Shown here piece by piece: positions 2,909 to 45,826 of a stretch of DNA of 64,000 nt. Every line of letters begins with the position of its first letter. The stretch's first letter is position 1. A model generated the notes under the pieces. It was not told the DNA's origin. It was given only the letters and a program-made list of their open reading frames with translations, and made no database searches. A program made the position numbers and the translations under genes. Where the stretch lies: the IMG/VR virus record IMGVR_UViG_2675903313_000009; one strand, given 5' to 3'. This DNA comes from a virus. Lineage: Duplodnaviria > Heunggongvirae > Uroviricota > Caudoviricetes.

Positions 2909-2999
2909 CGGTTGTAACTTATTGATAATGGCGGTCACAATTTGATTCTTTTCTATAAGAATCCGTTGATCGCCACTACTCCCCTACCATACCCGCAAT

Positions 3000-4803: not shown

Positions 4804-4928
4804 CCCCAACCAAAGCCAGCATTGCTGGCTTAATTTCTCTATAGCCGCAGGGAAGAACCTGCATATCGCTCATGCACCTGATCAATATGCTTTGTAGCCG
4901 TTTTCTTACTGGTATTATTTACGCCATT

Positions 4929-4950
4929 GAGAAAACAAGTTGTTTACGGA
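4929..4950 (+). promoter_or_regulatory. Early operator motif copy
   Basis: gagaaaacaagttgtttacgga upstream of ATG 4957. Confidence 0.5.
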
Positions 4951-4956
4951 GTTGTA

Positions 4957-5268
4957 ATGAAAAAATCATTGGTTCTTGGTCTGGACAAAGACCAGAAGAA
5001 AAAAGAGAAGCCTGCGCTGGTTGCTCAATTAACTTTGCTGGACATCGTTGCCAATGGAACCTCTATTCGTCTGTTCCGTGAAACAGCGGTGTCTTTCGAT
5101 AAAAACACCTTTACTCGTTATGTAATGAATGTTCGTCGCCAGCGTGGAAAAGGCTGGGTGGCATTTCAAAGAATGTGGCCGGAACATCAGCTCGAACTGG
5201 CTTTGATGGAAGTTAACCGCGTGGCCCAGCAAGAAATTCAGAGAGCATCAGTGATGGCAATAGCCTGA
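4957..5268 (+). CDS. Hypothetical small basic protein
   Basis: ORF with RBS; followed by terminator. Confidence 0.5.
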   Translation: MKKSLVLGLDKDQKKKEKPALVAQLTLLDIVANGTSIRLFRETAVSFDKNTFTRYVMNVRRQRGKGWVAFQRMWPEHQLELALMEVNRVAQQEIQRASVMAIA

Positions 5269-5302
5269 TAATGTGCAAGTGGTAATTAGTCGACCGTACG
5301 AC

Positions 5303-5331
5303 AGCCCCGCCATCCTTACGGGGCTTTTTTT
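5303..5331 (+). terminator. Rho-independent terminator
   Basis: Stem agccccg/cggggct followed by T7. Confidence 0.85.
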
Positions 5332-5336
5332 GTATT

Positions 5337-5352
5337 GTAAGTACATACTTAC
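5337..5352. promoter_or_regulatory. Palindromic TAAGTA..TACTTA motif copy
   Basis: gtaagtacatacttac, perfect palindrome. Confidence 0.4.
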
Positions 5353-5395
5353 GATCATAGAATAGAAAAATAACCAATACACTACGGAGAGTGAA

Positions 5396-5791
5396 ATGAC
5401 CGTTAAACGCGAAAAACTGACAGTTGATGTTTACTATGCCTCTGAAACCGCCGAAGGTAAGAATGTGGCAAAAATCACCGTTGTTACGTACAACACCGAA
5501 ACTGGTGCCGAAGTCCAGGCCAGTACGATCGTGCGTAAAGGTGATGCCTCCGGCGGCGAGTACGCGACTCAATACCAGTCCATTCTCGATGCAACTGACC
5601 CGCTGCTGCTGAAAATCGAGAACTACTTCCGCCAGGTTGATGAAGAGGTGTTTGAAACCATGATGAATATGGTTAACACCGTATTCGCCTCCAGCCTGAA
5701 TACCAACACTACCTGGATTGGTCAGTACGGCCTGCGCATTACCTCTGGCATTCCTGCCGACACCTTAATCCCTGAAAGCGTATTCGCTTAA
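5396..5791 (+). CDS. Hypothetical protein
   Basis: 131-aa ORF with GGAGAG RBS. Confidence 0.5.
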   Translation: MTVKREKLTVDVYYASETAEGKNVAKITVVTYNTETGAEVQASTIVRKGDASGGEYATQYQSILDATDPLLLKIENYFRQVDEEVFETMMNMVNTVFASSLNTNTTWIGQYGLRITSGIPADTLIPESVFA

Positions 5792-5835
5792 TCCTCTTTA
5801 AATGGCGCGTAAACCGCGCCATTTTATTAAGCCCG

Positions 5836-5856
5836 ATAACAATTTGTTTTCTGCCT
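5836..5856 (+). promoter_or_regulatory. Early operator motif copy
   Basis: gataacaatttgttttctgcc. Confidence 0.5.
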
Positions 5857-5908
5857 TATCTGATTTGTGAAAATGATTTCACTGAAGCAAGTTAATAAGG
5901 AAACCATC

Positions 5909-6283
5909 ATGGGACTTGATATCTATATCGAGACACAGCCTAAAAACGATCTGAATAACGAGGCATCCAGAAAGCAGGTTGCTTACTTCCGTAAGTTCAA
6001 TGCGCTCGTTGGGTGGATGGAGCGCAACGTAGGTGAAGTCGAAAATTGTGAGCTTTTAGAATTAACGATGAATGACATTTGTTTTCTGAAGGCTCATTTG
6101 ATGCACATAAACGAAAGTAATTGCGAAGAGTACTTGCCTACCCGGGAAGGTTTTTTCTTCGGCAGTCAGGAGTACGATGAAGGTTACTGGCATGATGTGG
6201 GGCAGTTGAAAGAGCTTGTGGAAGATCTGATTAAGAACCACGACTTTCACAATAACAGACTGACCTTCTGCGCCTGGTGGTAA
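5909..6283 (+). CDS. Hypothetical acidic protein
   Basis: ORF with TAAGGAAA RBS; start chosen at ATG 5909 rather than upstream GTG. Confidence 0.5.
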   Translation: MGLDIYIETQPKNDLNNEASRKQVAYFRKFNALVGWMERNVGEVENCELLELTMNDICFLKAHLMHINESNCEEYLPTREGFFFGSQEYDEGYWHDVGQLKELVEDLIKNHDFHNNRLTFCAWW

Positions 6284-6285
6284 AT

Positions 6286-6429
6286 ATGGGCGATTTCAAG
6301 AAACGCCTGAAGGAAAGAGCCGAGATGGTCAGAAAGCAAAACGCCTCTTCTGTCATCAGATACGCAAGGCAGTTTAGTCGCAACAACAAATCAGTTGAGG
6401 AAAAGATCCTTAGCGTAATCGGTCGATAA
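6286..6429 (+). CDS. Possible small basic protein (47 aa), translationally coupled
   Basis: ATG 3 nt after upstream stop; below ORF-track size cutoff. Confidence 0.3.
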   Translation: MGDFKKRLKERAEMVRKQNASSVIRYARQFSRNNKSVEEKILSVIGR

Positions 6430-6434
6430 TTATT

Positions 6435-6458
6435 AAGGCCATCAATGCTGGTGGCCTT
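6435..6458 (+). terminator. Hairpin, possible terminator
   Basis: Stem aaggcca/tggcctt; weak T tract. Confidence 0.4.
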
Positions 6459-6483
6459 AAATGACCATCCTGTTTCCCGCAGG

Positions 6484-6560
6484 CTAAAAACACCAACCTC
6501 TTACCTCCAGGCAACCGACAAACCCACCTGTTCCCGTCCGGCTACCGCAACTTTCCACTT
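6484..6560 (+). repeat. Second copy of CA-rich element (about 75% similar to 3312..3395)
   Basis: caccaacctctt..ggctaccg..ctttccac shared with the large CA-rich tract. Confidence 0.45.
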
Positions 6561-6596
6561 TGACGCCTTATTCGTACAACGATAATTAACACCAAC

Positions 6597-6620
6597 AAGA
6601 AAACAATTTGTTATTTACGA
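6597..6620 (+). promoter_or_regulatory. Early operator motif copy
   Basis: caagaaaacaatttgttatttacga upstream of ATG 6634. Confidence 0.5.
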
Positions 6621-6633
6621 TAAGGAATTAATC

Positions 6634-7116
6634 ATGAATTTTATCGCTACTGTAAACGCACCCGCACATGGCAATATCGCTGTAACGTTCTCTGACATTG
6701 AAAAACGAGTACTTGGTGCATGGCGCGACAATGAGACGGTAGAACTGTCAGCACAAGAAAAATGCATTATTGCACGCGACATCATTGGCAATCGTCGTTA
6801 CTCGCGGGTATTTGAGAAAGCGTATGTGGTAAATTCTGGATTCGGAACGTTCGTCTTTCCGGTGCGCTCCGGGCGATTCTGCCAGTCCAAGCTGATTGAG
6901 TTCGCTACGCAGATTTCTGTCTGGATTAAAACTCAATCGTCGTTCAAATTTTCCGACGATGAAGCAGTATCGCAGGGGATGCGGATCGCCAACAATGCGA
7001 TTAAATGCAAAAACATTACGTATACCGCTGGCGTTGATACATGGAAACTGTTTTGCGCTAACTTTATGCTGAATGTATACGCAAGCAACCGCATCCACAT
7101 CCTTGATGGCGTGTAA
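6634..7116 (+). CDS. Hypothetical protein
   Basis: 160-aa ORF with TAAGGAA RBS. Confidence 0.55.
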   Translation: MNFIATVNAPAHGNIAVTFSDIEKRVLGAWRDNETVELSAQEKCIIARDIIGNRRYSRVFEKAYVVNSGFGTFVFPVRSGRFCQSKLIEFATQISVWIKTQSSFKFSDDEAVSQGMRIANNAIKCKNITYTAGVDTWKLFCANFMLNVYASNRIHILDGV

Positions 7117-7124
7117 CTGAGAAG

Positions 7125-7147
7125 AGGGCCAGAAACGGCCCTTTCTC
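7125..7147 (+). terminator. Hairpin terminator after 6634..7116
   Basis: Stem agggcc/ggccct then TTCTCT. Confidence 0.5.
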
Positions 7148-7255
7148 TATAGCCACCAGCTGCCGCAGGGAAATTTTCAGAAACGGCGAGGAACGTATTC
7201 ATGAGCCGACGGGGAACGGCCAGGATTTTTTCGGGAAACGGCTGCATTCGCCTTT
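7128..7255. repeat. Direct-repeat array B: about 4 units with core G(G)AAACGGC
   Basis: cagaaacggcc / cagaaacggcg / ggggaacggcc / gggaaacggctg; same core as array A. Confidence 0.55.
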
Positions 7256-7660
7256 GTGTAGAAAAAACATCGGGAAGCTGGTGGAATCCAACCAGCGGTT
7301 GTCGGACAGGTGAGCGGGGAAAATTATGATGACTTTCGTCACCTGAGACATCCAGATTTCTTTCGTGGCATAATCACATACGTGATTAAGTGGTGTGATT
7401 ATGTGAAAAATCACGCGCACATAATACGCGAGCGGATACAGAACAAAACAAAATGCCGATCCGCACCGACAAATAAACGCGGATCACATAGCAAGACTAA
7501 AAGCCAATGATTAACCATACTCTATAGCGCAATATAACGCGTTTTAAGCGCGTTAATGTGTTAAGTAATGGGCATGTACTGGTAAGGATATAAAAGCGCG
7601 TCTATGGCGTTATTTTGGCGCTTATTTTTATGTTGTTGGAGTGAGTTAAAGACAATAAAA

Positions 7661-7680
7661 ACGCGCCATCATTGGCGCGT
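7661..7680. promoter_or_regulatory. GC-core palindrome acgcgcca..tggcgcgt
   Basis: 20-bp inverted repeat in AT-rich intergenic region. Confidence 0.3.
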
Positions 7681-7707
7681 TATGGTGGGAGTATTGGAAA
7701 CGAAAAA

Positions 7708-7726
7708 AGCGCCCATAGTGGGCGCT
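7708..7726 (-). terminator. 19-bp palindrome agcgcccatagtgggcgct with flanking A/T runs (copy 1); likely bidirectional terminator
   Basis: Perfect inverted repeat directly downstream of minus-strand gene 7732..7962. Confidence 0.55.
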
Positions 7727-7731
7727 CGATT

Positions 7732-7962
7732 TTATTTGTGTAAACTGATTTTAAATCCCATTTCTACAAACGCTTTTAGCATTAAAAATATATCAGCGTC
7801 GTTCACGTCTGCTTTTTTTCGCTCCTGGTCGCTCAATAAGTCAATTTTGTGCGTCGTTTCATCTATAAGCTCGACTGCGCGCCCAGCGTAACCAGCGATC
7901 CCAGCGATGCGATTAACATAATATTCATTATGGACGTTAACGCCAGCGATAAGAACAAACAT
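7732..7962 (-). CDS. Hypothetical small protein
   Basis: 76-aa ORF in AT-rich minus-strand block. Confidence 0.4.
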   Translation of the reverse strand: MFVLIAGVNVHNEYYVNRIAGIAGYAGRAVELIDETTHKIDLLSDQERKKADVNDADIFLMLKAFVEMGFKISLHK

Positions 7963-7983
7963 GATTAAGCTCCTTAAAAAAAA

Positions 7984-8187
7984 TTAAATAGAATTTTGAA
8001 GTTTTCCGATTAATGCGCTTAAACGTAAGTATTCACGTTTGCGCTTGCAATCTCGCTTGCTGTTAAGCAAATCAGAAAACGTAAAATTTAATTGGTCGCG
8101 TTGCGCGATTAAATCATCGATTAATTCCAGTTTATAAGCGCGATACTTTGCGCGATATTCCGCGCGGATCTTGTCATAGCTGACCAT
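7984..8187 (-). CDS. Hypothetical small basic protein
   Basis: ORF with GGAG RBS before ATG at 8187; Lys/Arg-rich. Confidence 0.4.
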   Translation of the reverse strand: MVSYDKIRAEYRAKYRAYKLELIDDLIAQRDQLNFTFSDLLNSKRDCKRKREYLRLSALIGKLQNSI

Positions 8188-8204
8188 TTTTAAAGCTCCT
8201 TTAA

Positions 8205-8223
8205 AGCGCCCATAGTGGGCGCT
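8205..8223. promoter_or_regulatory. 19-bp palindrome agcgcccatagtgggcgct (copy 2)
   Basis: Identical to 7708..7726; lies between two minus-strand genes. Confidence 0.4.
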
Positions 8224-8235
8224 TGATTCCATTAA

Positions 8236-8895
8236 TTACGCTTTGAAAGCATCAGCTAAATAATTGTAGAAATCATTTTTAATGAAGCGATATTGCTGAG
8301 TACCAGCTTTCGCGCTCCCAGCTCCTTTGACTTTTTCAACAAGTCCAAGACGTTCGCAAAGATTGATCAACTGGTTGGCTTGAGTATAGCCAGCGTCCAA
8401 TTTAATTTCACACGCTTTTTTAGCTTCATTCATTAAATCGAAAACAGCGCCATTGGTGAACGTGTCGATCTCGTCGTTAATCATATCGATTAAAGCGAAT
8501 ACACGAGATCCTGACATATCAGCGATGGAATAAACGCATTTACCAGATTTAATTGATTTAACCAGATAAACCAGTTTTTCCAGAGAATAACTATTAGTCA
8601 TTGCATCACGGAAAAATACTTCTGGCGCTTGTTTGCTTGCTTTAATCGCATAGTAGAAAACAGAGCATAATTTTTCGTCTTCTACAGCGTTTACAACGTT
8701 GTTGATGAAGTAAGCAAGTTTCGTGGTCGCAGCTTGCATATTTGCTTTGTCTGTTTTAGTGTGCGTACCATTTTTATAATGTTCGTTATATGTTTGAGTC
8801 GCCAGATCTGCTTTTTCGCGCAGCTCGTCGGATACAATAGATGCAGCTTCAATGATGGACTTTTTAGAAATGATAACGTTAGCCATGATGGACAT
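8236..8895 (-). CDS. Hypothetical protein
   Basis: 219-aa ORF, AT-rich. Confidence 0.55.
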   Translation of the reverse strand: MSIMANVIISKKSIIEAASIVSDELREKADLATQTYNEHYKNGTHTKTDKANMQAATTKLAYFINNVVNAVEDEKLCSVFYYAIKASKQAPEVFFRDAMTNSYSLEKLVYLVKSIKSGKCVYSIADMSGSRVFALIDMINDEIDTFTNGAVFDLMNEAKKACEIKLDAGYTQANQLINLCERLGLVEKVKGAGSAKAGTQQYRFIKNDFYNYLADAFKA

Positions 8896-9140
8896 CCTTA
8901 CGAAAAATTAAAATGAATTTATTTTTTACTGTCGTTAGCTAGCTCGCTTTCGACGAGTTCAATTATCGATACGTGAAAAAAGATTGCAAGTATTTTTTTT
9001 AAATTTTTTGCAGGGATGAAAGCCCTAGAAATAAAAGCGAGATCGTCGAAGGTGTTCCCTAAATAAATAATCAATTCGGGCCTTTAACCTTATATATTTA
9101 TACAGAGTGGCATTGAAAGAGTTTTAAATGAATGGCATGT

Positions 9141-9168
9141 AAAATAATAACCGGGCTTAGCCGGTTAT
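9141..9168 (-). terminator. Rho-independent terminator (minus strand) after 9182..9706
   Basis: Stem aaccgg/ccggtt followed by T-run on minus strand. Confidence 0.65.
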
Positions 9169-9181
9169 TACCCTTATAGAT

Positions 9182-9706
9182 TTAAAATGGAAGGATTCGT
9201 TCAACCCAATCGAAGAAAACAAGTATTTTTCTGCCGTCTTCTAACTTAAGAGTGACCTGGCAAGCATCAACGCCTCTTGACACCCCTTCAATTTCACGAC
9301 CGTCTGCCATGTAGACCCTTATAGATTGGTCGTTTTGATAAGCCTTGCGACATATCGCAAAAAAGTCACGGCGTGATGGCTGATTGTCAACATAGTCTGG
9401 ATGTATTGTTAGCCTACCTTTGAACTCGCGAGCAATGCCATCGATTACACCTGATTCAATTGTGCTAATGCGCTCAAGTGGGAGTCTTATACGATTTTCT
9501 TTATCATATGGAAGCGGGCATAAATCTAGCTTATTGCGGGAAGGCATTGTCCCCTGAACGTACATGCAAAACACCTGACCGTCTTCAAGCGTGACTCTTA
9601 CAGGAATGTTGTTCTTCCGCCAGAACATAAGTATGTTTTCAGCATGTTCGTAGTCTCGCGGCCAGACTTCAGCCGGTATGCCGTAGGTGATGTCCAATGT
9701 TCTCAT
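9182..9706 (-). CDS. Hypothetical protein
   Basis: 174-aa ORF; overlaps upstream gene by 4 nt. Confidence 0.5.
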   Translation of the reverse strand: MRTLDITYGIPAEVWPRDYEHAENILMFWRKNNIPVRVTLEDGQVFCMYVQGTMPSRNKLDLCPLPYDKENRIRLPLERISTIESGVIDGIAREFKGRLTIHPDYVDNQPSRRDFFAICRKAYQNDQSIRVYMADGREIEGVSRGVDACQVTLKLEDGRKILVFFDWVERILPF

Positions 9707-10317
9707 TCTGATACTCTTAGAGGTGTTTTCAGCAACCCAAATTTAAATTCTTTGTTACCAACGACAAAGAAGGGAACCTCAACATAGATTTTTTTATCGA
9801 CGGATTTAGAGTTAGCTGTTTTCTGTATGTCACGAACGATACGTTTTGAGATATTTTCATCGATAAACAATACCTTTCCACTTGTATTCCCTTCAGCCTT
9901 GGCGTAAGTAACGATAGGCTCTTCATTGCCAACCCTAATGTTTACTTGGCAACCTGTTGTAGCCATTTCATCACAGTAAAGTGTGCCGTCTTGAACTTCT
10001 AAAACAATTCCAGATGGCTTCATGGCTTCGTCAGAGTTTACATTAACGTTTTCTGGTACAGCGGTCCCGTTAATTTGCAACCGTAATCTTTCTTTTCCTC
10101 CATTAAGTATTGTTTCTTCTGCGTTGTCTGAGAATCTGAACCAAACTGGCTGATTCAGACCTCGTGATTTGTATTCTACTACGTCTTCGGAGGTAAACAT
10201 GCTGTACGTTTTTTGCATGTCAGAGACGAAATCTGATAATGCGTTGGCGGAAAACGCCGGGAGGCATATACAAGCAAGGAGTAACGAAATTTTCATTTTC
10301 ATATCATGATAATCCAA
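9703..10317 (-). CDS. Predicted secreted protein (N-terminal signal peptide)
   Basis: N-terminus MKMKISLLLACICLPAFSANA; true start probably a few codons inside the ORF. Confidence 0.55.
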   Translation of the reverse strand: MDYHDMKMKISLLLACICLPAFSANALSDFVSDMQKTYSMFTSEDVVEYKSRGLNQPVWFRFSDNAEETILNGGKERLRLQINGTAVPENVNVNSDEAMKPSGIVLEVQDGTLYCDEMATTGCQVNIRVGNEEPIVTYAKAEGNTSGKVLFIDENISKRIVRDIQKTANSKSVDKKIYVEVPFFVVGNKEFKFGLLKTPLRVSE

Positions 10318-34411: not shown

Positions 34412-37400
34412 TTGGACATGGAACAGTTCAAGAAGAAAAAATTACCGCTTCTTATTGCCGGTGCTGGTGGCAAGAAAAGTAAAAGCTCCAGCCGTACCCC
34501 GGTTGAAGCTGATGATACTGTCAATTCTCGTGCTATGGCAGCCATCCTCGACCTTCTTGGCGAGGGGGTTATCGGTGGCCTGGTAAATGGCGCAAAGTCG
34601 ATCTTCATCGACGATTTACCGATCTTGAATGAAGATGGCTCTTCCAACTTCAGCGGTATTACATGGGATTTTCGTGACGGCTCACAAGACCAGACGCCAA
34701 TGGCTGGTTTTGATTTTGTTGAAACGCCTAAGTCCGTAAATATTCAGCTTAAAAAAACACACGACGTTACGGTTTCAATCGATAACGATGAAGCTGATCG
34801 CGTTCGTGTCATCATGAAATTCCCCTCTTTACGTAGCGTTGATAAAAGCTCTGGCGATACAAATGGCACTACGGTGAAGTACAAATTCCAGATCGCCAAC
34901 GCAGACGCAACATTTTCTGATGTAGTGGCAGAAGGTGAGAAAAGCGTTGATATCACGCTAACGGCAAAGAAAACCGGCGTGTATTACCGTAGCCATGAGC
35001 TGAAACTGCCTAAGCCTGGTCGTGCATACAAGGTTAGGGTGATTCGTCTTACAGATGATAATAGTAGCCAGTACCTCTACAACGACACATGGGTTGATTC
35101 CATCGGTGAGATTGTCGACACGCCAATGAACTACCCTAACTCTGCTCTTGTTGGCTTGAAGGTCAATTCAGAGCAGTTTGGTAGCACAATGCCTTCCCGT
35201 TCGTATTTGGTGCGCGGTATCAAAATCCGAGTACCGTCAAACTACAACGAATACACCAATACTTATGTCGGCGTATGGGACGGTACTTTTAAGCTGTTGT
35301 CTTCTTCAAACCCTGCGTGGATTCTCTACGATTTGCTTACCAATACTCGGTATGGTCTTGGGCAATTTGTGTCGGAATCCATGATTGACCTCGGCCAGCT
35401 CTACCAGATTGGTCGATATTGTGACGAAGAGGTCGATGATGGCTTTGGGGGTAAAGAGAAACGCTTTGCAATCAATACGCAGATCACCAGTCGACAAGAC
35501 GCATACCGATTAATTCAGGATATTGCCGGTGCATTCCGCGGCATGGTGTTTTGGGCTGGTGGCATGGTTAACATCATGCAGGATAGCCCATCAGATCCGG
35601 TAATGATGTTTACCAACTCCAACGTCAAAGATGGACTGTTTACCTATAAAGGTTCTGCGCGTAAAGATCGCCCATCCGTTGCGCTCGTAACCTACAACAA
35701 CAAGGAGGACGGTTATAAGCAAAATATCGAGTACGTTGAAGATCAGGACGCAATGCGCCGTTATGGTGAGCGTAAAACAGAAGTCGTAGCATTTGGATGT
35801 ACAAGCCGAGGCCAGGCTCACCGAGTTGGTTTGTGGCTTTTGTATACCGCCAGAATGGAGTCGGATGTAATTACATTTACTGCCGGCTTAGACGCCTCAT
35901 TTCTGATGCCCGGTGAAACCGTTCTGATTCAGAACAAATATCGTGCAGGTAAACGTAACTCCGGTCGAATTGTGGAGTTTACCAAAAACAGCATCACTCT
36001 CGATGCGCCTGTGTCGTTAGCTAAAAGCGGCAGCTTTATTCGGATATTGAATCAGGAAGGCAAAATCGTTGAACGCGATGTTCTTGAAACTGGCGAAAAC
36101 ATAACAAAGGTTACGTTTTCAAAAGCCCTGTCGTCAGCGGAAACGCCTGTTTTGAACGGTGTCTGGACAATTACAGAACCAGATCTCGAACCTATGCGCG
36201 TTCGCATCGTTAACATCGCGCAGGGGGAAACGCCGGGTAGCTTTGACATCACCGCTGTTGAGAACAATCCGTCTAAATATGAGGCAATCGACAATGGTGC
36301 AACGCTGATCCCGCAGAATACGACGGTATTGGACCCAACTTACTCCAAGCCATCTAATCTGCAAATCACTGAAGGGACTTATCTCTCAAGCCCGGGCAAC
36401 CTGTCAGTAAAACTGACTGCAACATGGGAAGGAAAATCTCCAGAGTATTGGATCAGTTGGCGACGTTCTGATGAAAACAATGTATCGAACTGGCAATCGG
36501 CGCGTGTAACCGAAGAGCAATACGAAATCGTTAATGTCGCGGAGAATGGACGCTACGACTTCCAGCTGTATGCGGTTTCATTCAACGGTAAAAAAACAGA
36601 GATTATCAGTACCGTTTATCAGGTGTTGGGCACAATGACACCGCCGGATGCCCCAACGTCATTAACGGCCGTTGGAGACTATCGTAATGTGATACTGAAT
36701 TGGGTTAATCCAGATTCGGTAGACCTTGATCACATTAATGTTTACGCATCCCAGACCAACAATCTGGATACGGCGAAACTGATCGCAGAGTCTGCAAGCA
36801 CCACCTTTACACATGCTGGTCTTGGGGATAGCGAAACGTGGTATTACTGGGTTCGAGCATCGAACAAGCGAGGTATGTTAAGTCCTCCGAACTCAAACTT
36901 GGGTACAGAGGCGGCAACTCGCGATGTACTGTCGTTCCTGACTGGCAAAATTACATCTTCCGAGCTTGGTCAGGCTCTGCTTGAGGACATCAACAGCAAA
37001 GCCTCTCAAGAAGCAGTTGACGAGTTAAATGAGCATATCAACCAGAGCGTCGAATCTTTGGAGGGGGCGGTAAACGACGTTAAGGAAGATATAGCTGAAT
37101 TAGATAAGCAGTTCAGCGATAACCTCGCGAATTTTGAAATAAAATTCAACGAGCGTAGCGATGCTTTGGAGAACGCACAAACCGAGCTTAAAGGTGAGGT
37201 TTCGGCAACGATCGACAAGGTCAATGAAGCGTTTGAAAAAATTGATGCTACTGATGCTGCAATTGTTGAAATCGAAAACACCGTATCTGAACACGATAAA
37301 GCTCTCGCTAATACAGTCGAGGCAATAAAGGCTGCAAGAGATGAAGCGGCGGCTCTTATTGCTAAGGAAAGCGAGGCTCGTGTTGAAGGCGATGCTGCAA

Positions 37401-39142
37401 ACGCTAAACAACTGGAAGTGTTGCAGTCAACGGTAGAGGAAAGCTCCGCTGCCGTTGAAGAAATGAAAAAGACGGTTGCAGAGGTCGATCGTGCCAGTGC
37501 AGAACTGACTACGAACATTGAGGCGTTAGCCAAAACAAATATTGACTTGGCTCTTCGTCAAGATGAAGACCAGCACAAGCAGATGGTCAATAACGCGAAG
37601 ATCGCAACAACACAGAAAACCTTTGCTGATGATATGTCTGCAATGGCCACGAAGGTTGAGGAAATTCGCGTAGAAATTGGCGAAGACATTAAGGCCAGTA
37701 TTCTGGAAGAGTCCACCGCTCGTGCCGATGGCGATGAAGCGTTGGCAAAGCGTGTCACTCAGCTGCAATCTAAGTTTGAAGGAGATATCAGCGCGGCGAT
37801 TAGTACAGAGCAGGAGGCTCGTACATCTGCCGATGAAGCTCTGACGACACAGATCACTCAGCTTGAGTCGAAAGTAAGCAACGATATCGTCGCAGCTATT
37901 AAGGAAGAGCAAGAAGCCCGAGCAACGGAAGATTCGGCTCTGGCAAGCCAGATCACCCAACTTCAGGCAAAGGTTGATGATGATATTTCTGCTGCAATAC
38001 GTAGTGAGCAGGAGGCCCGAGCAAGCGGGGACTCTGCGTTAGCCAAACAAATAAACCAGCTTCAGTCAAAGGTTGACGGTGATATATCCGCTGCCATCAC
38101 TCAGGAGCAGGAGGCCAGAGCAAGTGCTGACCAGGCGCTCTCACGAGAAATTAACAGCCTGCGAGCACAAACCGGAACTGATATTGCCGCAGCGGTTGCT
38201 GTAGAGACAAAAGCAAGGACTGATGCCGATAGTGCATTGTCTACCCAGATTACGTCTCTTACAGCAAAAGCTAATGATCTCAAGGCGTCTCTTGCCAGAG
38301 AAACAACGGCTCGTGCAGATGGTGATACCGCTTTAACAAAAGAGGTTTCAAGTTTAAAAGCACAGACAGCGAAAGATATTAGTGCGGCCGTTGCAGTTGA
38401 AACGCAGGCTCGAACTGATGCTGACTCGGCGTTGTCGTCTCAGATCACCAAGCTGACCTCTCAATACAAAGAGGATATTAAAGCGGCTGTAGCAACCGAA
38501 ACGAAAACGCGTACAGAGCAAGATGCTGCATTGGCAACTCAAATCACAAACTTAGAGTCTCAAACGGCAGCCAACATTTCCGCGGCGGTCACAACTGAAA
38601 CGACAGCGAGAACGCAGGCAGATAATGCTCTGAGTGGGCGAATCGATACTCTGAAAGCAGAGGTGAATGGAAATACCGCGACAATTCAACAGCAGGCAAC
38701 AGCTATTGCTGATACCAACAAAAAAGTGTCAACCGCGTGGACGTTGAAAATGGAGACTTCAACGAGCGGAGGGCAGAAGTATGTTGCCGGTATTGCGCTT
38801 GGTATTGACACCACTGGGCTATCTCAGTTTTTGGTTCAGGCGGACAGGTTTGGTTTGGTCAACTCTGTTAACGGGAAGATCACAACGCCATTTGTTATCG
38901 AAAACAGTATCGCCTATATGAATGGAGCGTATATCAAGGATGGCACAATCACCAATGCAAAAGTAGGCGATCTGCAATCTACCAATTTTGTTAGCGGTAG
39001 ATCTGGATGGCGGTTCGGCAAAAATGGAACGCTTGAGATCAACGGTAATAGCGGCGGCAATGGGCGATTGGTTATAAATGGTCAGCGGATTGACGTTTAT
39101 GACGATAACAACGTCCTACGAGTAAGAATTGGCCGTCTGTGA
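34412..39142 (+). CDS. Tail tip / host specificity protein (J-like) with long coiled-coil repeat domain
   Basis: 1576-aa ORF after I-like gene; about 11 tandem 28-aa repeats. Confidence 0.85.
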   Translation: MDMEQFKKKKLPLLIAGAGGKKSKSSSRTPVEADDTVNSRAMAAILDLLGEGVIGGLVNGAKSIFIDDLPILNEDGSSNFSGITWDFRDGSQDQTPMAGFDFVETPKSVNIQLKKTHDVTVSIDNDEADRVRVIMKFPSLRSVDKSSGDTNGTTVKYKFQIANADATFSDVVAEGEKSVDITLTAKKTGVYYRSHELKLPKPGRAYKVRVIRLTDDNSSQYLYNDTWVDSIGEIVDTPMNYPNSALVGLKVNSEQFGSTMPSRSYLVRGIKIRVPSNYNEYTNTYVGVWDGTFKLLSSSNPAWILYDLLTNTRYGLGQFVSESMIDLGQLYQIGRYCDEEVDDGFGGKEKRFAINTQITSRQDAYRLIQDIAGAFRGMVFWAGGMVNIMQDSPSDPVMMFTNSNVKDGLFTYKGSARKDRPSVALVTYNNKEDGYKQNIEYVEDQDAMRRYGERKTEVVAFGCTSRGQAHRVGLWLLYTARMESDVITFTAGLDASFLMPGETVLIQNKYRAGKRNSGRIVEFTKNSITLDAPVSLAKSGSFIRILNQEGKIVERDVLETGENITKVTFSKALSSAETPVLNGVWTITEPDLEPMRVRIVNIAQGETPGSFDITAVENNPSKYEAIDNGATLIPQNTTVLDPTYSKPSNLQITEGTYLSSPGNLSVKLTATWEGKSPEYWISWRRSDENNVSNWQSARVTEEQYEIVNVAENGRYDFQLYAVSFNGKKTEIISTVYQVLGTMTPPDAPTSLTAVGDYRNVILNWVNPDSVDLDHINVYASQTNNLDTAKLIAESASTTFTHAGLGDSETWYYWVRASNKRGMLSPPNSNLGTEAATRDVLSFLTGKITSSELGQALLEDINSKASQEAVDELNEHINQSVESLEGAVNDVKEDIAELDKQFSDNLANFEIKFNERSDALENAQTELKGEVSATIDKVNEAFEKIDATDAAIVEIENTVSEHDKALANTVEAIKAARDEAAALIAKESEARVEGDAANAKQLEVLQSTVEESSAAVEEMKKTVAEVDRASAELTTNIEALAKTNIDLALRQDEDQHKQMVNNAKIATTQKTFADDMSAMATKVEEIRVEIGEDIKASILEESTARADGDEALAKRVTQLQSKFEGDISAAISTEQEARTSADEALTTQITQLESKVSNDIVAAIKEEQEARATEDSALASQITQLQAKVDDDISAAIRSEQEARASGDSALAKQINQLQSKVDGDISAAITQEQEARASADQALSREINSLRAQTGTDIAAAVAVETKARTDADSALSTQITSLTAKANDLKASLARETTARADGDTALTKEVSSLKAQTAKDISAAVAVETQARTDADSALSSQITKLTSQYKEDIKAAVATETKTRTEQDAALATQITNLESQTAANISAAVTTETTARTQADNALSGRIDTLKAEVNGNTATIQQQATAIADTNKKVSTAWTLKMETSTSGGQKYVAGIALGIDTTGLSQFLVQADRFGLVNSVNGKITTPFVIENSIAYMNGAYIKDGTITNAKVGDLQSTNFVSGRSGWRFGKNGTLEINGNSGGNGRLVINGQRIDVYDDNNVLRVRIGRL
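37690..38650 (+). repeat. Tandem ~84-bp (28-aa) repeats inside the J-like gene
   Basis: Repeating (D)ISAAI..EQEARA..D.ALA.QI.QLQSKV units visible at DNA and protein level. Confidence 0.8.
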
Positions 39143-39235: not shown

Positions 39236-42200
39236 ATGTGGTACAGGGAAGGTACTATCACATTTACACAGGGTAGCAATACTCTGGTTGGGGCAGGGAC
39301 AGCCTGGAATGTAACAGCTAATGGTGTGTTGCCGGGGATGATCGTCATTGGCCCCGACAATAAGCTGTATGAGATCAAGCGCGTAATAAGCGATACGAAT
39401 ATTGTTCTCTCAGAACCTTATACCGGCGAAACTCAGTCTGAGGTTCCGTGCCGAATCATTACGACCTATGAAGGCGACTTAACACAGTTTAGCGCGCGCT
39501 TTACTGCGCTAATGTCGCGTATGTCGGCTGATTCCAAGTCCATACGCAGTTGGTTGACTGCGCTGGATGAGGTGACAATCGAGCGTGAAGACGGTACAGA
39601 AGTGACCGTTAAGCCGCTAATGCAGATCGTCAACGAGCACAACGAAAACGTTGAGTGGTATAAAAATAACACTGACGCGATTGATGCTGCTGGCGACAAA
39701 GCTCGTGAGGCGGCGGCCAGTGCTGCCGCAGCAGCAAAAAGCGCCAATGTCGCTGGAGAAAAAGCCTCTCAAGCGTCTCAAAGTGCATCCGCTGCGGCAT
39801 CCTCACAAAGTGCCGCAAGTGCGAGTGCAACTGCTGCGAAAAAATCTGAAACGAATGCTGCAGCGTCACAAAAATCTGCAGCCACTTCTGCATCCACCGC
39901 GACCACGAAGGCGTCAGAAGCTGCCACCTCAGCCCGGGATGCGGCGGCCTCAAAAGAGGCAGCGAAATCATCAGAAACGAGCGCTGCCTCGAGCGCCGGC
40001 AGTGCAGCTTCCTCGGCAACGGCGGCAGGAAATTCCGCGAAGGCCGCAAAAACGTCTGAGACGAATGCGGATAACAGCGCACAGGCGGCAGCAGACTCAC
40101 AAACTGCATCGGCAAACTCCGCGACAGCAGCCAAAAAATCAGAAACCAACGCGAAAAATAGTGAGGCAGCAGCAAAGGTCAGCGAAACCAACGCTAAAGC
40201 GTCAGAGAACAAGGCGAAAGAATATCTCGACAAGGTCGGGGGACTCGTCAGCCCGATGACGCAATACGATTGGCCCGTTGTTACTGGTAATGAGTCTTTT
40301 TACATAAAGATCGCGAAACTTTCCGATCCCGGAAGCAACAATTGCCATGTAACGCTAATGGTTACTAACGGCGGTGACTACGGCTCCCCTTACGGAAACA
40401 TTGACTTTATCGAGATCTCGGCGCGCGGTCTGCCTTCTTCGCTTACTGCTGATAATGTATCTCGTTACCTGAGTATACGCCGTTTAGGGCCAACCGGGCT
40501 AATCAATAGCATGCAAATGCGTTACGGCCTGGTTAAAGGTGATGGCTTTATTGAGGTTTGGGCCTTCCAGCGTGCATTTATCAACGGCGCAAAGGTTGCG
40601 GTACTGGCGCAGACGGCACGCACGGAATTATACATTCCAGACGGATTTGTTAAGCAAACCGCCGCGCCTTCTGGATATGTTGAAGGCAACGTTGTAAGGA
40701 TTTACGACCAGGTAAACAAGCCGTCGAAATCGGATGTTGGACTTGGCAACGTAACGAACGATGCGCAGGTAAAAAAAACCGGCGATACAATGACCGGTGG
40801 GCTTACTTTTGCAAACGACTCAATCCTTGCCTGGATTCGGAATACTGACTGGGCGAAGATTGGATTTAAAAATGATGCCGATGGTGACACTGATTCATAC
40901 ATGTGGTTTGAAACAGGCGACAACGGCAATGAATATTTCAAATGGAGAAGCCGCCAGAGCACCACAACAAAAGACCTGATGAATCTTAAATGGGATGCTT
41001 TGTCTGTTCTTGTTAAAGCCCTTTTCAGCAGTGAAGTAAAAATATCGACAGTCAATGCACTGAGGATTTTTAATTCATCCTTTGGTGCTATTTTTCGCCG
41101 TTCTGAAGAAAGCCTGTATATCATCCCTACACGAGAAAATGAGGGTGAAAATGGAGATATTGGGCCATTAAGGCCATTCAACATCAACTTAAGAACAGGA
41201 GTTGTGTCTGTTGGTCATGGACTAAATGTTACTGGTGGCGTTAATGGTAGTTTGAACGGTAATGCTTCAACAGCTACGAAGTTGCAGACTGCGCGTACTA
41301 TTAATGGGGTGTCGTTTGACGGTTCTAAAAACATTGAGCTAACTCCAAGGTCTATAGGAACGATCAACTCAGCAACAATGTCTTTTAGTGGTGGTGCCGG
41401 ATGGTTCAAGCTGGCAACTGTAACCATGCCACAGGCCAGTTCCGTGGTTTACATAAGCCTGATTGGTGGTGCAGGGTATAACGTTGGCGCCCCGCAGCAA
41501 GCAGGCATCTCTGAGCTGGTTCTGCGTGCCGGAAATGGAAATCCAAAGGGTATTACTGGTGCATTATGGCGACGGACATCGGTTGGATTTACTAATTTTG
41601 CATGGGTGAATACATCCGGTGATACCTATGATGTTTATGTTGAAATAGGTAATTACGCCACAGGTGTTAATATTCAGTGGGATTATACCAGTAACGCCAG
41701 CGTAACGATTCATACATCACCAACTTATACAGCGAATAAACCAACTGGTCTTACTGATGGAACGGTATATGTCATTTACAGTTCGCACATTAAACCGACC
41801 GCCACGGATGTCGGCGCATTACCAATAACCGGAGGAAATCTCAACGGCGGTTTAACGGCTACTGGTGAGATCATTTCAAAATCGGCGAATGGTCTGCGCA
41901 TTGCCTATGGCAACTATGGATTCTTTATCCGTAATGACGGCGGCAGCACATATTTCATGCTAACAGCATCAGGAGATACATTAGGTTCATGGAACGGTTT
42001 GCGACCTATTACAATTAATAATACCAGCGGTGCTGTATCAATTGGTAATGGACTAAATGTGACTGGTGGCGTAAATGGTAGTTTGAACGGTAATGCTTCA
42101 ACAGCTACGAAGTTGCAAACAGCGAGAAACATCAATGGTGTTAAGTTTGATGGTTCAGGCGATATCAATATTAATACATTGGTATCTCGTGGCCGAGTTA

Positions 42201-43150
42201 CGGCGTTAAGCGGCTCTACTCAAGGCACTGCTGGCATTCAAATGTATGAGGCGTACAACAATAGCTACCCGACCACGTATGGCAACGTATTGCACATGAA
42301 AGGTGCGAGTGCTGCTGGTGAGAGCGAGTTGCTTATTGGCTGGAGTGGTACGAGCGGTGCACATGCGCCAGTTTTCATTCGCTCACGAAGAGATAACACA
42401 GGTGCAGCATGGTCAGCGTGGGCGCAGGTATATACCGCTAAGGATTCAATCCCTGGTGTGAATACAACTGGTAATCAGAACACTACTGGTAATGCCGCAA
42501 CCGCCACAAAATTGCAGACAGCAAGGAAAATTGCTGGTGTGGCGTTTGATGGCTCTGCCGATATAACTTTGACTGCGGCTAACCTTAATGCTTACACGAA
42601 AACAGAGGTAGCAAACCTTCTAAGTTCCTATGCAAGCAGATCATCACTGACAGGCTATAGTGGCAACCTGGATATTGTTGCTGAAACACTGGTTGTCAAA
42701 TCAGGCGGTAGTGGAGGGTTTGCTATATGGGATATTGGCACAACTACTAGCGGTGCCAATATGTACATTGATCCAAACCCAGGTATCAATACAGTTTGGC
42801 GTTCAACGTCTTCAAGGCGCTATAAAAAGGATATTGAAACATTACAAGATCGATATGCTGATGAACTTTTGTCATTAAGACCTGTTTGGTATCGTTCAAT
42901 TTGTCGAGGTGACCGAAAGAATTGGGGGTATTACGGCCTTATTGCTGAAGAGGTTGGTGAGATTGCCCCGCAATATGTCCATTGGCGTGAACCAACAAAT
43001 AATGATTCTCCAGAAGATATTTCCTCAAATGGTATGGTCGCTGAAGGAGTGATGTATGAGCGTTTGGTTGTACCACTCATTCATCATATTCAGCAATTGA
43101 CCAAAAGGGTTGAGGAGCTTGAAACGAAGTTAAATTCACCTAAAGAATAA
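39236..43150 (+). CDS. Long tail fibre protein with Ala/Ser-rich region and C-terminal intramolecular chaperone (peptidase S74-like)
   Basis: Ala/Ser-rich low-complexity block; three internal repeats containing [13 protein letters not shown]; C-terminal segment resembles auto-cleaving fibre chaperone domains. Confidence 0.8.
41203..42570 (+). repeat. Three dispersed internal repeats in tail fibre gene
   Basis: [33 protein letters not shown] near 41215, 42055 and 42480. Confidence 0.7.
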
Positions 43151-43163
43151 ACAACTTCAATCG

Positions 43164-43186
43164 GGGCTGGAGCTAAACCAGCCCCT
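43164..43186 (+). terminator. Hairpin after tail fibre gene
   Basis: Stem ggggctgg/ccagcccc. Confidence 0.5.
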
Positions 43187-43210
43187 GCTTAAAAGTATAA
43201 GGATATATTT

Positions 43211-43465
43211 ATGAGCTATGGTGCACAGGTTTGGTCGCCATCAAGACAGGAGATGGTCAATGCGTTGGCCCCTGTTTATTACCTCGATTATTTTACTCCC
43301 TCTGGTTCAGGAAGTAGAACATATGAGGTTGAGGCGGGATTGGGAATCGACTATTACATAATGGACGTAACCAATGGAAAGTACACAAGTCTTACGGTTT
43401 CTGGAAATACCATTTCGTGGTCTGGAGCTAGTGGTAATTTAAACATATTGGTTTTTCAAAAATAA
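43211..43465 (+). CDS. Hypothetical protein (possible fibre accessory)
   Basis: 84-aa ORF downstream of fibre. Confidence 0.4.
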   Translation: MSYGAQVWSPSRQEMVNALAPVYYLDYFTPSGSGSRTYEVEAGLGIDYYIMDVTNGKYTSLTVSGNTISWSGASGNLNILVFQK

Positions 43466-44073
43466 TGTACGGAAGCAAGATATATCGATCTGACGGGAAG
43501 GTCTGGATGTCTCCTTCTTTGTCTCCTATCGTTTTTCAGAGAAAGCAGGTTGTTTCTTTGTCCGGCGGAACAGAGTTTAACACCAAAATATCTCCAGATC
43601 GTTCACCGATTATTTTTGTTGCCTATTCGAAAGCTGTTTCATTAATAGCCAACAGAATAGTGCGTAACAACCAGGTGATTTACAGTTTCGGAGGTCGGGG
43701 TAGCGACTCTAGTGCCACGATATACGTATTTTCGAAAGGTATAGCCAAAAAAGAAACTTGGGGCATGAGTTTTTTCAATGCACAAGGGGGGGAAATCTAT
43801 AATACGGCAAATATCCCACTTTCATTTACCTTTCTTAATAATACGGAGTGGAACAGCTCTGGAGGGCATGTTTTTGATTACCCTCCAGCGATAATCCCAA
43901 CATATGCGAATGTGTTCGCTGTTCCAGTACCGGGCGGAGCCATGACAATGGTTTATGGATATGCGGCGTATGGAAATACTGTTAGCTCGATATTCGTAAA
44001 CCAACTTAATGGCGGCCATAGTTTTAGCGTAAATGGCAGAGTACCGGTAATAAATAGAAATCTGTATAACTGA
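43465..44073 (+). CDS. Hypothetical protein (possible fibre assembly or adhesin)
   Basis: 202-aa ORF, start overlaps upstream stop. Confidence 0.45.
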   Translation: MYGSKIYRSDGKVWMSPSLSPIVFQRKQVVSLSGGTEFNTKISPDRSPIIFVAYSKAVSLIANRIVRNNQVIYSFGGRGSDSSATIYVFSKGIAKKETWGMSFFNAQGGEIYNTANIPLSFTFLNNTEWNSSGGHVFDYPPAIIPTYANVFAVPVPGGAMTMVYGYAAYGNTVSSIFVNQLNGGHSFSVNGRVPVINRNLYN

Positions 44074-44080
44074 TGAGTAA

Positions 44081-44314
44081 ATGATGAAAAGATTATTTCT
44101 AACAATAGCTGTTGTTCTCTCTCTTACTGGCTGCCAGAAATTGCCGACACCTATATGTTATGGTGAAGCTATCATTGGTGGACAGGAGACAGTCATACCC
44201 ATATATGCTGTTAAAAAAGTGAACGACTATACCTTATACAAAGCGGGTAGCATCTATAACTGGCGATGGGTTGGAGTAGGTGCTTTCTCATCAATCGGTT
44301 GCAATGCTGAATGA
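44081..44314 (+). CDS. Small lipoprotein
   Basis: Signal peptide with lipobox LTGC (MMKRLFLTIAVVLSLTGCQ). Confidence 0.6.
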   Translation: MMKRLFLTIAVVLSLTGCQKLPTPICYGEAIIGGQETVIPIYAVKKVNDYTLYKAGSIYNWRWVGVGAFSSIGCNAE

Positions 44315-44333: not shown

Positions 44334-44395
44334 AACAAAAGGGTGAAATGTGATATAAATCCGCCATCCCGATTTGACTTTTCATGGAGGAAAAC

Positions 44396-44719
44396 ATGTC
44401 GAACGAGATGGCGGGCGTTACAACAGAGCAAGTTGAGCGTATTGCCGCGATCGTTGCTCGGGAGGTTGTTGGCAAATTAGGTAAAGAGCTACGTGAAGAA
44501 ATTGGCCAGGAGGTCAATGATCAGCTGAAAACCTACTTTGGTGATATGACCCCGGCGCAACATAGTATTCAACACTCCAATCTGGACAAACTCCTTAACC
44601 GGTTAGATTCCATCTCAAGTGGGTTCTTTGGCGGCATTGTTTCTAAAATAACGTCGTTCATTATTACCGCACTGCTTTTGGGGTTAGCCGCGTATGGCGT
44701 AAAAAGTGGACTGCAATAA
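44396..44719 (+). CDS. Putative holin or lysis regulator
   Basis: Single C-terminal transmembrane segment; directly upstream of endolysin-position gene. Confidence 0.4.
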   Translation: MSNEMAGVTTEQVERIAAIVAREVVGKLGKELREEIGQEVNDQLKTYFGDMTPAQHSIQHSNLDKLLNRLDSISSGFFGGIVSKITSFIITALLLGLAAYGVKSGLQ

Positions 44720-44732
44720 CAGGAGATCAAGG

Positions 44733-45425
44733 ATGAAGACTCCGAGAGGCATTCGTAATAATAACCCCGGTAATCTTGATAAAGGATCACCGTGGCAAGG
44801 TCTGGTTGCGAATCCAGACGAACCGCGCTTTTGCACGTTTAAAGACCCTGTTTGGGGGATTCGTGCGCTGGCGGTGACTCTAATTACCTACCACGATAAA
44901 CGTCGCGCAAAAGACGGCTCAAGTATCGATACCATTCGTGAAGTTATTGAACGCTGGGCACCGCCGAATGAAAACAATACTGACGCCTACATTAATGAGG
45001 TGTCTAAAGCCGTTGGTGTAACCGCAGACATGATCATCGATCTGCATGATTACGACATCCTTCGACCTTTGGTTGAGGCAATCATTCGCCACGAGAATGG
45101 CCGAGGCCCGCTAAAAACGCTGAACACCTGGTATGCGGCAGAAGTTATTGAGGAAGGTCTGCGTCGAGCTGGCGTTGTTAAGCCGGTGAAAACCGTGAAG
45201 GCTGTTCCTGTAACTAAAGAAACCGCAGGCGCAACTGTTACAGCAGGTATTGGTCTGGCGCAGCTGGCCGATGTTATGCCGCAGGTTTCCGCTGCTATGG
45301 ATAAAGCACAAGGTCATATCTCTAGCGGGGATACAGTACGCATCATCTTCGGTATTGCCACTATTGTTGTGGCAGGATTCATTGCCTGGTCGCAGGTAAG
45401 AAAACACCAGAAAGGGATGGTCTAA
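44733..45425 (+). CDS. Putative endolysin (by position), C-terminal hydrophobic segment
   Basis: AGGAG RBS; lies between holin-like and spanin genes; enzymatic family not assignable. Confidence 0.45.
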   Translation: MKTPRGIRNNNPGNLDKGSPWQGLVANPDEPRFCTFKDPVWGIRALAVTLITYHDKRRAKDGSSIDTIREVIERWAPPNENNTDAYINEVSKAVGVTADMIIDLHDYDILRPLVEAIIRHENGRGPLKTLNTWYAAEVIEEGLRRAGVVKPVKTVKAVPVTKETAGATVTAGIGLAQLADVMPQVSAAMDKAQGHISSGDTVRIIFGIATIVVAGFIAWSQVRKHQKGMV

Positions 45426-45426
45426 T

Positions 45427-45678
45427 ATGCTAGGCAGCCTGATGACAAAGCTAAAAGTTGCTTTGATTACGCTGGCTGCCGTTCTTTTCGTTCTGGTCGG
45501 CGCTTACACGATGGGCGGAAATGCGGCGCGACGAGCAATGGAAGAGAAGGCAAAACAGGAAGACAGGAAACGACTTCAAAGCACAGTGGATGTCAAAAAT
45601 GAAACGGTTAATGAAGTGCGGCAAAAAGATGCCTCTGGTGTTCATCGCGAGCTGTTTGATAAATGGGTGCGTGATTAA
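45427..45678 (+). CDS. Inner-membrane spanin (Rz-like)
   Basis: N-terminal TM helix then charged helical region. Confidence 0.6.
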   Translation: MLGSLMTKLKVALITLAAVLFVLVGAYTMGGNAARRAMEEKAKQEDRKRLQSTVDVKNETVNEVRQKDASGVHRELFDKWVRD

Positions 45679-45826
45679 GACGCAGGCTCCAGGCGTGCTA
45701 TTCTGCGATGCTGCAAATCCTATCTATGTGAGTAGAGAGGATTTTATGACTGAGGAAACGGAGCGACAGTTGCTTATCCACAATACGATAGGTGAAAGGC
45801 TGTGTGAGTGGGGGCACCTGAACTGA
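45599..45826 (+). CDS. Outer-membrane lipoprotein spanin (Rz1-like), overlapping Rz in +1 frame
   Basis: Lipoprotein signal ending LINGC; overlaps Rz 3' half and extends beyond it. Confidence 0.5.
   Translation: MKRLMKCGKKMPLVFIASCLINGCVIKTQAPGVLFCDAANPIYVSREDFMTEETERQLLIHNTIGERLCEWGHLN

Follow-up and report, generated by a model that had tools for sequence, protein, structure and literature searches.

The DNA analyzed here is a 64,000-nucleotide stretch from a virus of the class Caudoviricetes (IMG/VR record IMGVR_UViG_2675903313_000009). We refer to its full length as the window. The window belongs to an SSU5-like phage-plasmid. The gene under study, cor, lies on the plus strand at 44081..44314, stop codon included, and encodes 77 amino acids from the first ATG. 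The translation of this open reading frame (ORF) is MMKRLFLTIAVVLSLTGCQKLPTPICYGEAIIGGQETVIPIYAVKKVNDYTLYKAGSIYNWRWVGVGAFSSIGCNAE. An earlier sequence-only reading had placed a 77-amino-acid lipoprotein gene here, after the tail fiber and accessory genes and before the lysis genes. The ORF was exact, and both the fiber and the lysis genes lie where that reading had them. The two genes between the fiber and cor are not fiber accessory or chaperone genes; their profile matches mark them as homologues of gp22 and gp23 of phages N15 and phi80.

The true start of cor is likely the second ATG, at 44084, which gives 76 amino acids. This is the RefSeq start for a 99.9%-identical locus (WP_021520500.1). 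The family profiles align to the window Cor beginning at residue 2, not 1. The spacing of a Shine-Dalgarno-like GAG triplet at 44075-44077 suits 44084 better than 44081. The N-terminal part of the protein is MMKRLFLTIAVVLSLTGC, which is followed by QKL. The N-terminus is basic and leads into a hydrophobic core, and the LTGC lipobox (44123-44134) includes Cys18. The earlier call of a lipoprotein held, with only the likely start shifted. The lipoprotein signal peptide, MMKRLFLTIAVVLSLTG, spans 44081..44131 (plus strand) and was recognized by a lipobox regular-expression match and its hydrophobic stretch. Pfam contains no Cor model, and the sole Pfam match was a lipid-attachment one (LPAM_1, residues 2-19) below the cutoff.

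The mature protein contains 60 amino acids and is encoded at 44132..44311 (plus strand). The lipid is predicted to attach at Cys1, and two further cysteines, Cys9 and Cys57, are conserved. The Gln at position +2 is compatible with predicted sorting to the outer membrane. The mature protein also contains the conserved segment A38-G-S-I-Y-N-W-R-W-V47. Because pN was 0.29 and pS was 0.80 between the window and SSU5 copies, with synonymous sites saturated and dN/dS uncorrected, cor appears to be under purifying selection.

The window protein matches PHROG 1119 ("Cor superinfection exclusion protein") with an E value of 7.8e-30, residues 2-76 aligning to profile positions 1-76 of 78. It also matches the NCBIfam equivalog NF047972 ("phage exclusion lipoprotein Cor") with 80.1 bits against a cutoff of 31 (residues 2-75 on positions 1-77 of 78). 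These matches are far above chance and identify it as a full-length member of the Cor family. Homologues were retrieved with tblastn from 193 phage records and were mostly annotated as Cor. Identity to the window Cor was 59% in SSU5, 58% in Stx podophages, and 47% in HK75 and mEp phages. It was lower in phi80 (41.6%) and in T1-like and Dhillonvirus phages (~30%). The window Cor shares 43-45% identity with the Cor proteins of phi80 and HK75, and the phi80 and T1 proteins share 32%. The window, SSU5, and Stx-phage proteins form their own subgroup with 56-60% mutual identity. The homologue search returned 4 proteins from the single sequence and 345 from a 9-sequence profile. In the nine-sequence alignment, three cysteines are invariant and an NWRW segment is conserved; among 114 homologues, mature C1, C9, G39, and C57 were invariant. 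PADLOC returned no match for any of the three proteins encoded by gp22, gp23, and cor.

Near-identical copies on E. coli plasmids are annotated in RefSeq as "cor: phage exclusion lipoprotein Cor." The sequence-only reading guessed the window cor correctly; the Cor family has been described since the 1990s, and RefSeq pipelines now name the gene automatically. With the family known and the annotation automatic, the identification has little significance for this window.

An AlphaFold2 model of the mature 60-residue Cor (114 sequences) is a small beta-barrel with a predicted local distance difference test score (pLDDT) of 88.3. Foldseek against the PDB returned T5 Llp, the lytic conversion lipoprotein, as the best match, with template modeling (TM) scores of 0.62 and 0.60. 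The best matching entry was Llp bound to FhuA. The modeled fold is an Llp-type small disulfide-stapled beta-barrel and can be superposed on Llp. T5 Llp itself scores in PHROG 1119 with an E value of 1.1e-19. The Cor alignment and Llp were aligned over the full length by hhalign (E value, 2.3e-5; probability, 76%; identity, 12%). This alignment pairs the lipid-bearing cysteines of the two proteins and also matches Cys9 to Llp Cys11, Cys57 to Llp Cys58, and the Trp in the conserved segment to Llp Trp46.

The mechanism of Llp is described by the Llp-FhuA crystal structure. Periplasmic Llp binds a non-native plug, and Llp Ile39-Trp46 replace the switch helix (PMC9586334). Binding folds loops EL7 and EL8 of FhuA inward over the pb5 site (PMC9586334). 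Llp alone inactivates FhuA and gives resistance to phi80 and colicin M as well (PMC9586334). Several groups have stated that Cor shares the Llp fold and probably its mechanism (PMC9586334; bioRxiv 10.64898/2026.03.26.714494; PMC13164509). The Cor proteins of phi80, N15, HK022, mEp167, and T1 are reported to inactivate FhuA, excluding FhuA-dependent phages and blocking ferrichrome, colicin M, and albomycin (PMC9586334; bioRxiv 10.64898/2026.03.26.714494; PMC13164509). An AlphaFold3 multimer model of KanT1 Cor with FhuA lacking residues 1-70 reached an ipTM of 0.84.

We read the window gene as coding for a phage exclusion lipoprotein of the Cor family, carried by an SSU5-like phage-plasmid, with an Llp-like mechanism and FhuA as the likeliest target. 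We give this reading a probability of roughly 85%. It is supported directly by family membership, the lipoprotein features, the conserved cysteines, the Llp-like fold, and the neighboring gene for a protein like a receptor-binding protein (RBP). From these we infer the localization, target, allosteric mechanism, and timing of the window Cor.

By general lipoprotein rules, the precursor would be exported, receive its lipid at Cys18, and then be cut by signal peptidase II. The mature protein, with Gln at +2, would then be sorted to the outer membrane. Its 60 residues would form a small beta-barrel in which a Cys9-Cys57 disulfide joins the ends, as in T5 Llp. By analogy with Llp-FhuA, Cor would attach to a TonB-dependent transporter at its plug and periplasmic face. 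The plug would be locked in a non-native state, the extracellular loops would move inward, and the phage RBP would be unable to dock. Superinfection would be blocked, and progeny would not be wasted on lysing cells and debris. The earlier idea of a receptor-blocking exclusion lipoprotein is borne out by the curated Cor model, PHROG 1119, the three cysteines invariant among 114 homologues, and Llp-FhuA as the best PDB match. One refinement is that the receptor is probably not masked from outside. Binding would be to the periplasmic face, with the loops closed allosterically (by Llp-FhuA analogy; PMC9586334).

The sequence-only reading had also placed the lipoprotein next to a receptor-binding gene. 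This agrees with what was found, as cor directly follows the gene for a 202-amino-acid gp23-like protein whose model resembles a proven siphophage RBP. This protein is probably the central tail-tip RBP and the cognate partner of cor. Its AlphaFold model (102 sequences) has a pLDDT of 66.6 and a predicted TM score of 0.71. Confidence is highest over the first ~130 residues and poor over residues 147-191. The fold is RBP-like, and there is no export signal: neither a signal peptide nor a transmembrane segment was found in the gp22-like or gp23-like protein. Sequence searches were negative. A phmmer search of the 202-amino-acid protein against PDB sequences found no match, hmmsearch with the 102-sequence gp23-like profile found a chance match only, and hhalign of the gp23-like family against the Oekolampad RBP gave no signal. 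The Oekolampad RBP carries the PHROGs label "membrane protein" (phrog_1265). Such labels are unreliable, because this RBP itself bears one. The structural link between the "membrane-associated protein" of the cassette and a proven RBP is suggested by the models and is a mildly new by-product.

Previous work supports the same arrangement. The locus downstream of J was described as a bona fide RBP locus with a cognate exclusion protein (Maffei et al. 2021; bioRxiv 10.64898/2026.04.02.716166). PMC13164509, citing Wietzorrek 2006, refers to gp22-gp23-cor as the "cor cassette" and associates this trio with phages that depend on FhuA. The tie of this trio to FhuA use is also made in Maffei et al. 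2021 and bioRxiv 10.64898/2026.04.02.716166. The authors of the KanT1 study guessed instead that both upstream proteins take part in exclusion, having found nothing structurally similar to either (PMC13164509). In the window, cor most likely lies directly behind the gene for its cognate RBP. The protein just upstream of cor is likely the terminal RBP and offers a handle on the protein receptor of SSU5-like elements.

The strand arrangement was considered as a sign that gp22 and gp23 are structural. It was dropped, as the proven or probable RBP genes of Oekolampad and TheodorHerzl lie opposite to J together with a lipoprotein gene. In these Dhillonviruses (TheodorHerzl 5518-6683; Oekolampad 4655-5844), a unit of two genes runs on the strand opposite to J and encodes a small lipoprotein first and then the RBP. 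Only cor is inverted relative to J-gp22-gp23 in T1, ES18, grams, and Gluttony. Because the Dhillonvirus two-gene unit, the T1-type inverted cor, and the other arrangements differ, RBP/exclusion modules are wired into transcription in at least three ways.

Several points weigh against the reading of the window gene as a Cor with FhuA as its likeliest target. The function of the window and SSU5 copies is a prediction. The Foldseek E values for the small Cor barrel were nonsignificant, as expected at such a small size, and phmmer of Cor against PDB sequences found no match at an E value of ≤10. No convincing sigma-70 promoter or terminator dedicated to cor was found, the scans giving nothing above shuffled expectation. 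The gp23-like protein shares only 21-26% identity with the proteins of T1, phi80, HK75, grams, Gluttony, ES18, and PMBT35. The sole demonstrated receptor of SSU5 is the lipopolysaccharide core, bound via a side-fiber adhesin, and no paper was found that links SSU5-like elements to FhuA. Cor-like proteins also occur in BtuB-using phages (PMC13164509), so the target does not follow from the family alone. The element can do without the cassette, because it is missing from close relatives such as Cyrano, which has a J 97.7% identical to that of the window.

The strongest alternative keeps the same protein and target and concerns timing. In it, the main role of cor is late-lytic and is not a standing immunity of the plasmid-bearing lysogen. 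We rate this slightly below even odds. Within the tail-to-lysis gene string, cor shares its strand with the RBP-like gene and starts 7 nucleotides behind it, and the scans found no promoter or terminator of its own. The spacing in SSU5 is equally tight. Exclusion is also held to keep progeny off the remnants of lysed cells (PMC13164509). Instead of being made constitutively in the plasmid state, Cor may be produced late with the tail genes and shield progeny from debris. However, E. coli prophage Cor was reported to prevent superinfection by FhuA-dependent phages (bioRxiv 10.64898/2026.03.26.714494). The phi80 cor lies after a 111-nucleotide gap and has a terminator behind it, and cor forms a separate opposite-strand unit in T1, ES18, grams, and Gluttony. 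A looser scan of the window also found one weak promoter candidate inside the upstream gene, ~280 nucleotides upstream, with a perfect TATAAT at 43798-43803 and a weak -35. Consensus promoter scans are weak evidence either way.

The second alternative concerns the target. It keeps the mechanism and has Cor act on another TonB-dependent transporter or outer-membrane protein, matched to the divergent RBP. The gp23 proteins of T1, phi80, HK75, grams, and Gluttony share 53-86% identity among themselves, far above their identity to the window protein. The FhuA-type RBP family of Drexlerviridae and relatives is delimited by >30% identity (bioRxiv 10.64898/2026.04.02.716166). The 202-amino-acid protein falls below this limit, though it and the FhuA-type proteins fall in one PHROG (phrog_425; E value, 6.4e-48). 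For the gp22-like and gp23-like proteins alike, the window and SSU5 versions share only 21-30% identity with their counterparts in T1, phi80, HK75, grams, and Gluttony, and identity among these counterparts is 53-100%. Cor is 42-46% identical to the phi80 group, so the RBP-like partner is the outlier of the cassette. Given this outlier, the receptor may differ from the FhuA type. The occurrence of Cor-like proteins in BtuB-using phages, the action of the analogous lipoprotein Rtp45 on LptD, and the separate subgroup of window, SSU5, and Stx-phage Cor (56-60%) point the same way. The strong divergence of the gp23-like protein in SSU5-like elements is itself a mildly new by-product.

Against a different target, all tested Cor members act on FhuA. 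Identity to phi80 Cor is also higher for the window Cor (43%) than for T1 Cor (32%), and the phi80 and T1 proteins are both reported to act on FhuA. The shared PHROG of the gp23-like protein also argues for FhuA. We consider a target other than FhuA rather unlikely. FhuA is the likeliest target by analogy, because every tested Cor and Llp acts on it, and we favor it by a modest degree. A broader reading takes the SSU5-like RBP and Cor as a deep branch of the cassette, perhaps with a non-FhuA receptor, and RBP families currently regarded as unrelated as one ancient superfamily that swaps together with the matching lipoprotein. It is drawn because the "membrane-associated protein" family of the cassette shares its modeled fold with the LptD-binding Oekolampad RBP. 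We hold it as tentative and doubtful.

Another alternative makes Cor an assembly factor or partner of the two upstream proteins in one three-protein exclusion system. The suggestion of the KanT1 authors that the upstream proteins take part in exclusion (PMC13164509) speaks for it, as does the strong synteny of the trio. Yet Stx podophages carry cor without the other two genes, as do T5-like phages in the form of Llp, and Llp binds and inactivates FhuA by itself (PMC9586334). The upstream proteins contain no signal peptides or transmembrane segments, and the 202-amino-acid one resembles a virion RBP. We regard a three-protein system as improbable. That the window protein is a lysis lipoprotein of the downstream cassette (an o-spanin or lysis accessory) has next to no standing: it is a small outer-membrane-type lipoprotein encoded 70 nucleotides 5' of the holin gene, but a complete and separate Rz/Rz1 pair lies at 45427-45826 (PHROGs 1026 and 1275), the protein matches Cor models and no spanin and is not nested in the Rz gene, and Cyrano carries the lysis cassette at 95% identity without cor, so that a spanin role is excluded.

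The Cor lipoprotein reading can be compared with known systems. The closest in family terms are the Cor proteins of phi80, N15, HK022, and mEp167 (lambdoid and N15-type temperate coliphages), which fall in the same curated hidden Markov model family with 42-49% identity. They share the length, the lipobox, and the three cysteines, and they likewise follow gp22 and gp23 homologues on the same strand. Unlike the phi80 type, the window and SSU5 carry the trio after the lateral fiber gene and not directly after J. The window cor lies 7 nucleotides from the upstream gene, whereas the phi80 gene has a 111-nucleotide gap and a following terminator. The partner proteins of the window are 21-30% identical to those of the phi80 type, and the host element is a ~110-kb phage-plasmid.

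Salmonella phage SSU5 encodes SSU5_025 in the orthologous position. It is labeled in GenBank as 'putative phage superinfection exclusion protein Cor-like protein.' The cassette and lysis region are collinear with ~76% DNA identity, and the Cor proteins share 57-60%. The cassette differs more than its surroundings, with 57-74% amino acid identity against 94-95% for the adjacent lysis genes. SSU5 also encodes an extra fiber adhesin, SSU5_022.

T5 Llp (PDB 8A60 and 7QJF) is ~12-14% identical to the window Cor and gave no phmmer match. T5 uses another RBP, pb5, and its llp has its own annotated promoter. Rtp45 and Oekolampad bas18_0026, from LptD-targeting small siphophages, are likewise ~6-kDa periplasmic lipoproteins encoded beside the RBP and act from the periplasmic side. 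They belong to a different family (phrog_4281), of which only the signal peptide aligns with Cor. They act on LptDE by steric displacement and not by long-range allostery.

The cassette (43211-44314) was found at 95-100% identity in 68 of 5,426 complete E. coli genomes and was plasmid-borne every time. Loci with 99.9% identity sit on ~110-kb E. coli plasmids and are annotated "cor." One plasmid that carries the cassette is pSLy3 (NZ_CP015915). These phage-plasmids are flagged as possible carriers of resistance to FhuA-dependent phages. If cor is expressed, the carriers could resist colicin M and albomycin too. The cassette is an accessory module, because the TipJ marker was present in 225 complete E. 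coli genomes and the cassette in 68.

The lysis region of the window is 95% identical to that of Escherichia phage Cyrano (pLF82) and 83% identical to that of SSU5, and a ParA gene follows it. In Cyrano, the fiber gene leads directly to the holin gene. By blastn, the window and Cyrano align at 95% as far as 40068 and once more from 44313 on; the interval shows nothing but scattered fiber repeats. The right breakpoint is the last base of the cor stop codon (44313), and the left breakpoint is inside the fiber gene. The host-range module that differs from Cyrano spans 40068..44313 (plus strand) and contains the distal fiber, the gp22-like and gp23-like genes, and cor. The Cyrano counterpart of the swapped or absent fiber-cassette block lies at 6688-10001. 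This presence/absence polymorphism of the cassette among near-identical phage-plasmids is a mildly new by-product.

Cor homologues were found on 145 plasmids, 73 of them from Escherichia and 45 from Enterobacter, with some from Salmonella, Klebsiella, and others. Older GenBank and PLSDB annotations often leave the cor ORF uncalled (for example, CP056250 at 7946-8269), and current RefSeq names it cor. These uncalled ORFs are a small gene that earlier pipelines overlooked. The closest Cor outside SSU5-like elements (58%) was found in Stx-converting podophages (Oslovirus), such as vB_EcoP_phi367 at 2428-3213. The Oslovirus cor directly follows a 'tail fiber adhesin' gene, without gp22 and gp23. 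This case suggests that cor also moves alone, as a general anti-phage moron.

Upstream of the cassette, the central tail-tip protein TipJ is encoded at 34412..39142 (plus strand). It contains 1,576 amino acids and matches Pfam FNIII-A_GpJ, Phage-tail_3, and Phage_Tail_Tip. An insertion in J at 37700-38130 (plus strand) encodes a long Ala/Glu/Ser-rich, coiled-coil-like segment with internal repeats (~100-nucleotide offset, 67% identity). The J of phi80 is without this insertion and aligns only to residues 19-1026 and 1373-1576 of the window J. The C-terminus of J was considered as a receptor indicator and dropped, as its last 204 amino acids are a generic domain that matches 1,823 phage records from many genera. 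The lateral tail fiber at 39236..43150 (plus strand) contains 1,304 amino acids and matches Pfam Gp34_trimer and Peptidase_S74. It has its own C-terminal intramolecular chaperone. The window fiber is a mosaic relative to the Cyrano and SSU5 fibers.

The first gene of the three-gene cassette encodes an 84-amino-acid N15 gp22-like protein at 43211..43465 (plus strand; PHROG 557; E value, 2.4e-24). It may be an accessory of the RBP locus. The second encodes the 202-amino-acid N15 gp23-like protein at 43465..44073 (plus strand; PHROG 425; E value, 6.4e-48). The RefSeq start of this gene is 43507, which gives 188 amino acids. The trio gp22-gp23-cor recurs in phi80, HK75, T1, ES18, grams, Gluttony, and SSU5.

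The lysis cassette lies downstream at 44384..45826 (plus strand; PHROGs 5093, 873, 1026, and 1275) and carries the same annotation in SSU5 and Cyrano. It contains a holin-like gene (44384/44396-44719), an endolysin gene (44706/44733-45425; PHROG 873), Rz (45427-45678), and an Rz1 lipoprotein ORF (within 45521-45826), all on the plus strand. An extended -10-like TGaTATAAA lies at 44351-44359 (plus strand), 25-37 nucleotides 5' of the holin start, in a segment 95% conserved with Cyrano. It is a possible lysis-gene promoter just after cor. The endolysin ORF with a GTG start (44706) overlaps the end of the holin gene, and its RefSeq start is 44733. The endolysin also contains a strongly hydrophobic C-terminal helix (residues 213-231; KD19 2.07), a place where endolysins do not usually carry a membrane anchor.
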